Part shown: positions 3,001 to 6,000 of the stretch, piece by piece | Position numbering within the stretch: position 1 is the stretch's first letter | How the letters are laid out: each line of letters opens with the position of its first letter | IMG/VR virus record: IMGVR_UViG_2563366867_000003 | Length of the DNA: 23,630 nucleotides | Reading direction: 5' to 3' (one strand) | Source of the DNA: a virus | Taxonomy: Duplodnaviria > Heunggongvirae > Uroviricota > Caudoviricetes | Made by a program: the position numbers

Positions 3001-6000
3001 GGGAAACGGATATTGCGGGTTGTGGTTCTGCGGGTCCGGTTTTTCGATGACATATTTATTTCCTTTACTGATTGCCATATGACGGGGATTTTACATGGCT
3101 GAGCTTCGTACACTCCAGAGCAGAATCAAAACACTGAATACCCGACGGGTGAATATTCTGAAGGGGGAACAGCGTCGTGTCAGTGGCAGTGCACGTGTTT
3201 CCCTCAAGCGTCATATCTGGCTGAGGGACGCCGGGCAGTGCTGTATCTGTGGTCGTGTGGTTGACCTCTGTGACAGTGAACTCGATCACCGAATTGCACT
3301 TCAGTTCGGTGGTGGTAATGAGGAGACGAATCTCTGGACGCTCTGTACCGAATGCCATCGACAAAAGTCTGCTCGTGAAGCGGCGGGTGGTATGCCGGAC
3401 CCGACGCTGCCGGAGGTGTCCGGAGGTAGTGACAGAGCGGACGACATCATCGGACTGTAACCCGACCCGGGGGGGGTATCATCCGGCGTAAAAAACGATC
3501 GCTTTGGACACCGCGCCCCCTCTCACGCAGAGAAAAAATTCCCGTTTCAGGGCAGTTAACATGTTAACTGGCTGCCCGGGCATTTTTGCGGTTTTTATCT
3601 TTATTATTCAGTTTGTTGTGCGGAAAAAATGTTAACAGGCTTTTTCAGCAAATGTTAACCAGGCAGCAGTTAACATTTGCGGCATGAGACGCCGGGGAAA
3701 AATGGGCTGAACCATACCCGGCTGAGTGCGTTCTGGACCCGGGAGGAGGCTGTGCTGACAACGCAAAAACGAAAATTTGCGCTGGCGCTCATGTCCGGGA
3801 AAAACAAAACAGCGTCAGCCATTGCCGCCGGTTATTCGGCGAAGACCGCCAGGGTTAAAGGCTCGCAGCTGGCAAAAGATCCGGAGGTGCTTGCGTTTAT
3901 AGCCCGTAAACAATGCGAGACGGTGGAGGTGGATGAGGTTCCTGTTTACCGGCAGAAAAAATCAGAGCAGGAGGATAAACCCCGTCGCCGTGAGGCGGCT
4001 GCAATACCTCAGCCGGACGAAAATAATCCGGAGATGCCACCGTCCGCGGTGATGTCTCCTGGTATTGAATATATGGAGGATGGTCTTCCCGATCCGGTGA
4101 AAGCCATGGGGCGGATCCTGGTGGAAAACCTCTGCATTGATCCGAAACTGGCACTGGATGCGGCCTGGCGTCTGGCGCAGTTCACGCACCATAAAAAAGG
4201 GGATACCGGGAAAAAATCGGCAAAAGGTGATGCCGCGAAAAAAGCGGCTAACCGTTTTGCGGTGCCACCGCCACCCCGACTGGTGGTGAATAACGATAAT
4301 GAGGGCAACGGATGATACCTGTATGGAGCACAGCCTGCCCGGACTGGGCAGAGCGCCTGAAAAAGGGGCTGTCGATTATTCCGGATCCGATTTATCCGGA
4401 CGAGGCCGCACATGCCCTGGCGATTTTTAAACAACTGCGGATTGTGGATGCACCTGGTAGCCCGACGTTCGGGGAGTCCTGTGCACCGTGGGTGTTTGAC
4501 CTGGTGGCGGCCCTGTTTGGCTCCTACGATGCGCAGACCGGTGTACGCCATATCAAGGAAGTTTTTATCCTTATCCCCAAGAAAAACTCGAAGTCCACGC
4601 TGGCCGCGGGGATCATGATGACTGCACTGTTACTGAACTGGCGGCAGGCGGCGGGTTACACGATTCTGGCCCCGACTGTGGAGGTGGCGGCCAACGCCTT
4701 CAACCCTGCCCGGGATATGGTACGACGTGACGATGATCTGGATGACCTCTGCCAGGTACAGACCCATATCCGGACCATCACCCACAGGGTGACAGACACC
4801 ACCCTGAAGGTGGTGGCTGCCGATCCGAATACGGTGTCCGGTATCAAGTCCGTGGGTACGCTGATTGATGAGTTGTGGCTGTTTGGCAAGCAGTGCAAGG
4901 CGGAGGACATGTTACGTGAAGCCATAGGCGGCCTTGCCTCCCGCCCGGAAGGGTTTGTGGTGTATACGACCACCCAGTCGAATGAACCGCCTGCCGGGGT
5001 GTTCAGACAGAAACTGCAGTACGCCCGGGATGTGCGCGACGGCAAAATTCATGATCCGCACTTTCTGCCGGTGATATTTGAACACCCTCCTGAAATGGTG
5101 GAAAGCGGGGCTCACCTGCTGATGGAAAACCTCGCCATGGTCAATCCGAATCTCGGCTATTCAGTGGATGAGGCCTTTCTGTACCGGGAGTACCGTAAAG
5201 CCCGGGAAGCCGGTGAAGAGACATTCCGGGGGTTCATGTCAAAACACGCCAATGTGGAAATTGGTCTTGCCCTGCGCTCTGACCGCTGGGCGGGGGCTGA
5301 TTTCTGGGAAGAGCAGGGCCGTTGTATCAGCCTGGACGATATCCTGCGTCGTGCTGATGTGGTGACGGTGGGGATTGACGGCGGAGGGCTGGATGATCTG
5401 CTGGGGATGTATGTGATTGGGCGTGACCGGGAGACCCGCGAATGGCTGGGCTGGGGCCATGCCTGGGCGCATGAAACCGCGGTGGTCCGACGGAAGAGCG
5501 AGGCGTCCCGGTTTCAGGATCTTGTTGCCTGTGGAGATATGACCATTGTCCGGCGTGTCGGGGATGACACGGCGGAAGTGGCGGAATATGTGCGTCGCAT
5601 TCATGAGGCTGAGTTACTGGACCATATCGGTATTGACCCGTCAGGGGTGGGGCAGATTCTGGATTCACTGGCGGAAGCCGGGATCCCCGACGGAATTGTG
5701 GTGGGGATAAGCCAGGGCTGGAAGCTGGGCGGGGCCATCAAAACCACCGAGCGCAAACTGGCTGAAGGGGTACTGGTGCATGGTGGCCAGCCCCTGATGG
5801 CCTGGTGTGTCGGCAATGCCCGGGTGGAGCCTAAAGGTAACGCCATCCTTATTACCAAACAGGCCAGCGGACGGGGAAAAATTGACCCGCTGATGGCGCT
5901 CTTCAATGCGGTGTCCCTGATGTCCCTGAATCCGGAACCGAAAAAGAAAGCGTATGAGGTTTTTTTCATATAACCCTGCTCACCCTGTAACCATCATGAA

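Follow-up and report, generated by a model that had tools for sequence, protein, structure and literature searches.

In phage lambda the cohesive-end site, cos, is laid out as cosQ-cosN-cosB, with the motif copies R3-I1-R2-R1 bound by the small terminase gpNu1, and between lambda and phage 21 cosB and the helix-turn-helix (HTH) of Nu1 are exchanged together, and with them packaging specificity. The cos of phage HK97 was reportedly described with its HNH endonuclease, gp74, by Kala et al. in 2014. This cos lies between the HNH gene and the small-terminase gene (terS) and has a 10-nt 3' overhang (PMC11331095; PMC9410871); in PMC11331095, a role of gp74 in cos cleavage is cited and the HK97-type small terminase is described as binding a single 15-bp site at +15 to +29. 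Phages SPP1 and SF6, with G1P and a pac site (pacL-pacC-pacR), package by headful, having recognition sequences that flank the cut and neither defined ends nor an HNH partner. Such pac sites can sit within terS genes. Here we analyse a 23,630-nt stretch of DNA from a member of the Caudoviricetes (IMG/VR record IMGVR_UViG_2563366867_000003; hereafter the window), in which the interval 3461-3751, between an HNH endonuclease gene and terS, contains a G8 tract, a conserved core and a cosB-like array of short repeats. Judging from comparison with related sequences, this interval very probably serves as cos for a lambdoid prophage of the BP-4795/2851/Lys8385Vzw group, whose packaging is of the HNH-associated cos type; the cut site of this group has already been published (PMC7946995).

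The window site is functionally lambda-like but assembled from other parts, with an overhang and HNH partner like those of HK97 and a small terminase of the SF6/SPP1 family, known elsewhere from headful phages. It shares with lambda the mixed orientation of the motif copies on the terS side of the cut, an AT-rich and possibly IHF-bent spacer, a conserved upstream element (here the G-tract) and the joint swapping of motifs and terS DNA-binding domain while the cut site and large terminase stay constant. It differs from lambda in that the 12-nt 5' overhang, winged-helix Nu1 and 16-bp R sites of the latter are replaced by 10-nt 3' ends (those of its relatives), an HTH of the Terminase_2 family (PF03592) and 8-bp half-sites; in addition, an HNH gene is adjacent in the window and the involvement of IHF there is putative. 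The resemblance to HK97 lies in the placement of cos between the HNH gene and terS, the 10-nt 3' overhang, the head module (protease and capsid, PF05065 and PF04586) and an A-tract 10-20 bp downstream of the cut, whereas the small terminase belongs to a different family from that of the HK97/P27 type and a five-copy candidate array at +32 to +155 stands in place of the single 15-bp site. A preliminary description of this DNA had invoked an HK97-like setting; the small terminase is SF6/SPP1-like and not HK97-like. With SPP1 and SF6 the window has in common the small-terminase family and its DNA-binding fold, together with recognition sequences around the cut that in more compact relatives fall inside the terS gene; unlike these headful phages, the window family has defined cohesive ends.

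The position of the cut was obtained from two relatives with defined ends. PhageTerm analysis of virion DNA from the Shiga toxin (Stx) 1 phage Lys8385Vzw identified it as a cos phage with the 10-nt 3' cohesive ends CGCCCCCCCT (PMC7946995). Lys8385Vzw terS is 95% identical to that of the window, and identity over the intergenic region is about 95-97% in the other close relatives (BP-4795 96.4%). The Lys8385Vzw record ends in ...GGACACCGCCCCCCCT and starts with CTCACGCAGAG, which align to window positions 3512-3521 and 3522 onward, and the record of Burkholderia phage Bcep176 begins and ends with the 10-mer CGCACGTTCC, which immediately precedes CTCACGCGCAG and occupies the same alignment position. 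The end positions of these relatives are thus established, and alignment to both predicts a 10-nt 3' cohesive-end sequence CGCGCCCCCT (the cosN equivalent) at 3512-3521 of the window, with the right-hand nick between 3521 and 3522. This cut position lies inside 3461-3751, 31 bp upstream of the first repeat element, an 18-bp palindrome, and so the earlier reading of the interval as a cos or packaging region holds. The cohesive-end sequence itself differs among close relatives, with CGCGCCCCCT, CGCCCCCCCT and CGCGCCCCCC found in the comparison of the window with L003/L004, L092 and L093 (L and P numbers denote compared loci). Two further potential clues to the cut were set aside: the end of the vB_EcoS_phi330 record, which is merely linearised at the large-terminase gene (terL), and the SfI/SfV cos TGCCCGCCCC, which is of a different sequence and family and therefore uninformative.

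The predicted cut falls within a conserved core at 3506-3545, GGACACCGCGCCCCCT/CTCACGCAGAGAAAAAATTCCCGT, recognised from columns invariant across lineages and containing an A6 tract at 3533-3538. Among six diverged lineages 32/40 core columns are invariant, compared with 8/29 in the preceding 3477-3505, and the core pattern GGACACCGC.CCCCCTCTCACGC.CAGAAAAAATTCCC is found again in 23 Enterobacterales and Burkholderia loci. Salmonella phage SP-016, with a terS protein of 48.6% identity, yet keeps window positions 3466-3568 at 80.6% nucleotide identity. The G8 tract (3469-3476) forms the left-hand element of the site, about 36-43 bp upstream of the cohesive-end sequence. A run of G7-G9 is found at a fixed distance upstream of the cut in every Enterobacterales relative, its length ranging from G7 to G9 even among close relatives, and Bcep176 has GGGGAGGGGG at a similar distance; in phage-inducible chromosomal islands (PICIs) carrying the site, the 29-nt spacing from G-tract to GGACACC is kept with a different intervening sequence. 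By analogy, the tract may be a cosQ counterpart or a nuclease-positioning element. In the PPompW prophages (L101:1046-2504, PPompW_132418), the IS110-family element ISEc20 abuts the cos G-tract at about window position 3473, and neither a lysis cassette nor an HNH gene is present between the Q/tRNA region and cos; on this gene content, these prophages would be without the presumed cleavage cofactor.

Downstream of the core, the 8-bp half-site ATGTTAAC is repeated five times, with two copies in the palindrome, two direct and one inverted. Half-sites 1 (3555-3562, minus strand) and 2 (3561-3568, plus strand) are the arms of the perfect 18-bp palindrome CAGTTAACATGTTAACTG at 3553-3570, that is +32 to +49 from the cut. 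Half-site 3 (3629-3636, plus strand) is a direct copy of ATGTTAAC, while half-sites 4 (3652-3659, plus strand) and 5 (3669-3676, minus strand) form an inverted pair with a 9-bp gap, CAGGCAGCA (3652-3676), in which the GGCAGC of the gap is invariant. In extended form, AAATGTTAAC occurs at 3627-3636 followed by AGG and at 3650-3659 followed by CAGG, and the inverted copy GTTAACATTT at 3669-3678 contributes to a 12-bp perfect inverted repeat with 3648-3659. The palindrome, the two direct copies, the inverted copy and the G8 tract reported in the preliminary description were all recovered in place. All five ATGTTAAC copies of the window are inside 3555-3676, against 0.31 expected over the full 23.6 kb (0/100 shuffles reached five), and five of the nine GTTAAC hexamers of the window are clustered in 120 bp, in the array. 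As in a lambda-type cosB, several short-motif copies are therefore found between the cut and terS, above chance.

These motifs are under selective conservation, which is established by comparison of four lineages of the window's specificity class (class i: the window, the P0038 locus, the P0009 locus and the island L087), where 37/38 motif columns are invariant compared with 46/113 spacer columns (Fisher p = 5e-11); half-site 3 does not vary among the class-i lineages or the PICI islands. The T-rich spacer at 3583-3626 includes a conserved element, ATTCAGTTTGTTG (3606-3618), of which the form ATTCA[GT]NNNGTT[GA] is kept in all six lineages while the remaining spacer drifts. This element differs from the IHF consensus at two positions and may represent an IHF-type bend site, although consensus matches (88 found versus 117 expected) are not significant in number. 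A promoter scan of the array returned a sole match, on the minus strand and built from the motif itself, and as two sites were found versus 1.1 expected this was not used as evidence.

The half-sites vary in concert with the DNA-binding domain of the small terminase. In a second class of E. coli loci (class ii: E. coli 2014C-3097, here L086, the P0023 locus and the P0033 locus) every half-site reads ATGTTTA[TC] instead of ATGTTAAC, such that the palindrome is ATAAACATGTTTAT, half-site 3 is ATGTTTAT and the inverted pair is ATGTTTAC...GTAAACAT. The terS recognition helix is AKTARVKG in class i and EKSARCKG in class ii (AKSARCKG in P0033), the common change being KTARV to KSARC, and P0009 and P0038 keep both the KTARV helix and GTTAAC despite their diverged spacers. 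The pairing of KTARV with ATGTTAAC and of KSARC with ATGTTTA[TC] holds across 8 loci, establishing the co-variation. The class-specific substitutions are located in the predicted recognition helix (aa 33-41) of a protein that scores 36.0 bits against the SPP1/SF6-type family PF03592 (curated cut-off 26.1) and has PDB profile matches to the SF6 and Pam5 small terminases. Its AlphaFold model has a four-helix N-terminal domain (aa 1-50, predicted local distance difference test 93-96) with an HTH of helices 19-25 and 33-41, and among solved folds it comes closest to that of the SF6 small-terminase DNA-binding domain 4zc3 (template modelling score 0.84, root-mean-square deviation 1.6 A). The protein comprises an N-terminal HTH domain (aa 1-56; 3752-3919), a disordered linker (aa about 57-110) and a C-terminal helical remainder.

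Sliding identity against L086 delimits the exchanged block to 3541-4076, comprising the array, the terS DNA-binding domain and the linker. Identity is at least 95% to the left of 3540 (with the exception of one 40-bp segment, 3213-3252, at 88%) and at least 90% to the right of 4077, while inside the block it falls to 28-70% in 3533-3771, 70-90% in 3772-3971 and 35-55% in 3972-4076. Between the window and L086, the HNH protein is 98%, the terL protein 97% and the DUF3950 protein encoded upstream of the HNH gene 97% (64/66) identical.

Satellite islands provide a further view of the site. The cos-type satellite SaPIbov5 reportedly has a phage-type cos, an HNH-dependent helper and a capsid homologue, Ccm. 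The E. coli PICI EcCICFT073 keeps the cosN and cosQ of lambda with a different cosB, and requires Rpp to retarget terS (PMC6739421). Two types of island in our comparison carry the window-type site. L087 (E. coli CH427, 1-8300, next to clpS) is PICI-like, with an integrase, an AlpA-like regulator, Icd, a RepA helicase and a ClpP-capsid fusion, and is without HNH, terS and terL genes; L097/L102 is an EcCICFT073-like PICI which, as L102 in E. coli DETEC-S792 (1800-12700, next to tRNA-Pro), encodes a capsid, a decoration protein and a Nu1-like gene and has no Terminase_2 terS, terL or HNH. L087 and L097/L102 keep the G-tract, the cut-site core and all five half-sites, and phage homology stops right after half-site 5. 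Because this retention occurs in islands lacking a Terminase_2 terS, terL and HNH, the array appears to act in cis. L087 and L102 resemble SaPIbov5 in carrying a helper-type cos, L087 also in its capsid-protein homologue, and differ from EcCICFT073 in keeping the complete phage-type array, which would imply direct use of the helper terS. The "small terminase" of L102 was considered as a reason for array retention and rejected, this gene being Nu1-like and unrelated to the window terS. L102 also seems to have further cos-like segments upstream of its cassette, and the L087-type right end is present in about 27 complete genomes.

Selective motif conservation, concerted change with the recognition helix, cassette linkage and satellite retention together point to the array as a set of binding sites read by terS, making the small terminase the most likely binder and the half-sites its most likely docking sites. 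This agrees with the earlier suggestion that the repeats are terS-binding sites, with the correction that the cut lies not within the array but in the separate core upstream.

The palindrome has a probable origin in the terS gene itself. In most relatives (20 or more), the terS start codon is embedded in GT[AT]AAC-ATG-TTAAC, about 42 bp after the cut and behind a GGAGGG ribosome-binding site. The window palindrome is at the same offset (+32), but about 185 bp separate it from terS, in the E. coli/Stx lineage only, and the present terS start is GTG CTG ACA at 3752. The palindrome is thus probably a relic of the ancestral terS start codon (ATG TTA AC) that has become perfectly symmetric, and its retention after ceasing to start terS argues for a role at the DNA level. 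A hydrophobic frame of 24 codons, MLTGCPGIFAVFIFIIQFVVRKKC, starts at the relic ATG on the plus strand of the window (3561-3635) and stops in the third GTTAAC; L092 has a frame of equal length. Pantoea L022 (2430-2500) has three GTTAACC-type copies between the cut and an ATG CTG ACA start. Morganella L024 (2240-2500) has the same start; most of its GTTAACC/GTTAAT-type copies precede the G-tract, at positions in or close to the end of the HNH gene, and a single degenerate copy follows the cut.

The compact relatives have an imperfect palindrome, GTAAACATGTTAAC, and an inverted pair inside the terS linker at +244/+260, with the same geometry (8-mer, 9 bp, 8-mer) as half-sites 4 and 5. The pair reads AAT GTT TAT ACC CCA GCN GTA AAC (N V Y T P A V N), with synonymous positions frozen while adjacent codons vary. 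At L002:4290-4330 and its equivalents in L006-L021, the linker N-V-Y-T-P-A-V-N is encoded by the almost invariant AATGTTTATACCCCAGCNGTAAAC, which has the look of a cis element lying within coding sequence. At this point in the linker, other terS subgroups encode repeated K-V-T-x-K-V-T peptides, which may conceal a different DNA motif. We propose tentatively, and at slightly less than an even chance for the whole, that the array, the terS DNA-binding domain and the linker form an exchangeable cassette, for which E. coli has at least two specificities (ATGTTAAC and ATGTTTAY), that PICIs have captured the complete phage-type cos, and that the terS genes of the more common compact relatives carry their own sites in start and linker codons.

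In the mechanism that we envisage, terL, probably together with the adjacent HNH nuclease, would introduce staggered nicks in the core to give the 10-nt 3' overhang CGCGCCCCCT. The N-terminal HTH domains of terS would bind the half-sites of the cosB-like array (3553-3676), consisting of the palindromic pair at +32, the T-rich and possibly IHF-bent spacer, the direct half-site and the inverted pair with its 9-bp gap, and so anchor the holoenzyme beside the cut site on concatemeric DNA. This anchoring would set packaging specificity and direction, into terS and terL. Direct binding by terS and its stoichiometry, as well as the roles given to HNH, the G-tract and IHF, are what we infer from sequence comparison.

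Several points weigh against this reading. The mapped ends belong to a relative of this prophage, Lys8385Vzw, whose overhang differs from that of the window by one base. A hairpin, in RNA or DNA, would likewise be preserved when palindromic half-sites change in concert, such that part of the co-variation does not discriminate between explanations. By analogy with HK97, the invariant A-tract segment (+10 to +22) could be the true docking site and the array an accessory. Distant relatives package with one non-coding palindrome, and the five-copy array may therefore not be essential. The preliminary description had regarded absence of the array from related phages as telling against a packaging function; the five-copy array is indeed absent in distant relatives, but the palindrome at the same distance and the terS inverted pair are kept. 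The IHF-like match is statistically non-significant. Across distant relatives, the correspondence of a T or S helix residue with TTAAC or TTTAY is a trend only, with L018 and L023 as exceptions, and the specificity argument accordingly rests on the clean contrast within E. coli lineages rather than on this rule.

Of the alternatives, the one that survives best, although we regard it as unlikely, is that another factor, either a host nucleoid protein or a phage protein, binds the array and that terminase docks only on the core (+1 to +25), as in HK97. From E. coli to Burkholderia no variation is seen in the A-tract segment CTCACGCAGAGAAAAAATTCCC, which is situated where the HK97 small terminase binds (+15 to +29), and the compact relatives are without the non-coding five-copy array. 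However, a concerted change of all five half-sites, in a block confined to the array and the terS DNA-binding domain, is beyond what a host factor can explain, and the other nearby phage proteins are unchanged between the two classes. The core, moreover, shows no less invariance where terS proteins share only 35% identity, as would be expected if it were recognised by the conserved terL and HNH and not by terS.

Less likely again is that the repeats act as RNA, through hairpins of the terS leader or late transcript by which transcription would be terminated or attenuated or terS translation regulated. The palindrome (GGGCAG...CUGCCC) does precede a U-rich sequence, a 12-bp stem is present at 3648-3680, the array RNA folds somewhat more stably than its shuffles (z = -2.3) and the concerted class changes leave the hairpin arms complementary. 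This stability is nevertheless what is expected of any inverted repeats, and structure by itself would not demand that the two hairpins and the unpaired third copy share one 8-mer and all exchange it for the same new one, as they do. In addition, the islands retain the array without a downstream terS and the palindrome of the compact relatives is imperfect. An Rfam search at gathering and permissive thresholds gave no meaningful match (best E-value 1), and a terminator scan of 2800-4400 called no plus-strand terminator.

The preliminary description had also offered the array as an operator for the adjacent ribbon-helix-helix (RHH)-like DUF3950 (YlcI/YnfO) protein, a possibility that now appears remote. 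Short inverted repeats are typical of RHH operators; the DUF3950 gene (2853-3080, minus strand) is just upstream of HNH, and a gene annotated YlcI/YnfO is also found in the island L087 (L087:1051-1356, minus strand). The DUF3950 proteins of the window, with its ATGTTAAC array, and of L086, with its ATGTTTAY array, are however the nearly identical pair noted above, and L089 has the array with no DUF3950 gene between Rz1 and HNH. The annotated L087 protein gave no Pfam match, L102 has the array without such a gene, and the array is about 470 bp from the 5' end of the DUF3950 gene (3080), with the HNH gene between them. Equally remote are a non-functional relic, consisting of duplicated copies of the ancestral terS start, and its variant, a coding sequence for the 24-aa hydrophobic peptide translated from the old ATG (3561-3635). 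ATG TTA AC is the terS start in most relatives and the frame MLTGCPGIFAVFIFIIQFVVRKKC has its counterpart in L092, but in L086, L093 and the islands this frame is interrupted after 4-5 codons; conservation is far higher in the motifs than in the spacers, contrary to what neutral decay would produce, and a relic would not switch all its copies in concert. The related idea of a small hydrophobic open reading frame (ORF) acting as a type-I toxin was rejected, the 24-aa frame being interrupted in three of five lineages.

The window as a whole covers the late region of a lambdoid prophage of E. coli and shares 93-99% identity with Stx-converting phages such as BP-4795, 2851, 1717 and Lys8385Vzw. 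A lysis cassette (409-2423) is followed by the DUF3950 gene and then by the HNH endonuclease gene (3095-3460, plus strand; 121 aa; PF01844, 30.6 bits), an annotation shared by BP-4795 and RefSeq E. coli homologues. The HNH protein is the presumed cos cleavage cofactor, by analogy with HK97 gp74 and SaPIbov5 and from gene adjacency. The cos site lies between this gene and terS/terL, as in HNH-associated cos phages, and the interval 3461-3751 is bounded by the HNH stop codon (3458-3460) and the GTG start of terS at 3752. The ORFs called mechanically inside it (43 aa on the plus strand, 44 aa on the minus strand) are not kept in relatives. The final part of the interval is a leader (3681-3751, plus strand) with the terS ribosome-binding site GGAGGAGG at 3742-3749, just before the GTG; this leader varies between lineages (3692-3731 is only 28% identical to L086) and is absent from the islands. 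On the plus strand, terS (3752-4315; 187 aa; PF03592) is followed by terL (4312-5973; 553 aa; PF03354 and PF20441), which encodes ATPase and nuclease domains, and then by a prohead protease-major capsid fusion (5954-7975; 673 aa; PF04586 and PF05065) and the portal gene (8187-9551). The usual order of head genes is terL-portal-protease-capsid; in the window (5954-9551), terL is followed by the protease-capsid fusion, a short ORF region and then the portal, which is thus downstream of the capsid.

The intergenic region is present in 1286/5426 complete E. coli genomes (about a quarter), at up to 8 copies per genome, and the module is also found in many Stx1 and Stx2 phages. A limited literature search returned no description of the array, the two specificity classes, the relation to terS start and linker codons or the capture by PICIs. 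The site does not represent a new kind of mechanism, being a well-supported and fairly ordinary packaging signal in a medically relevant and widespread prophage module. A minimal cos cassette of about 3461-3680 could serve cosmid-style or transduction tools, and the natural specificity swap offers a system in which to study DNA recognition by SF6/SPP1-type small terminases in a cos/HNH setting. If the proposed reading is true, compact terS genes would be under a dual coding and cis-acting constraint, and induction of Stx and related lambdoid prophages could package the islands directly, without an Rpp-like retargeting protein. Independently of that reading, knowledge of the cut site, the motifs and the two classes makes it possible to predict which prophages, defective prophages and satellites can be packaged by which terminase, a matter that bears on the spread of Shiga toxin genes and of PICIs.

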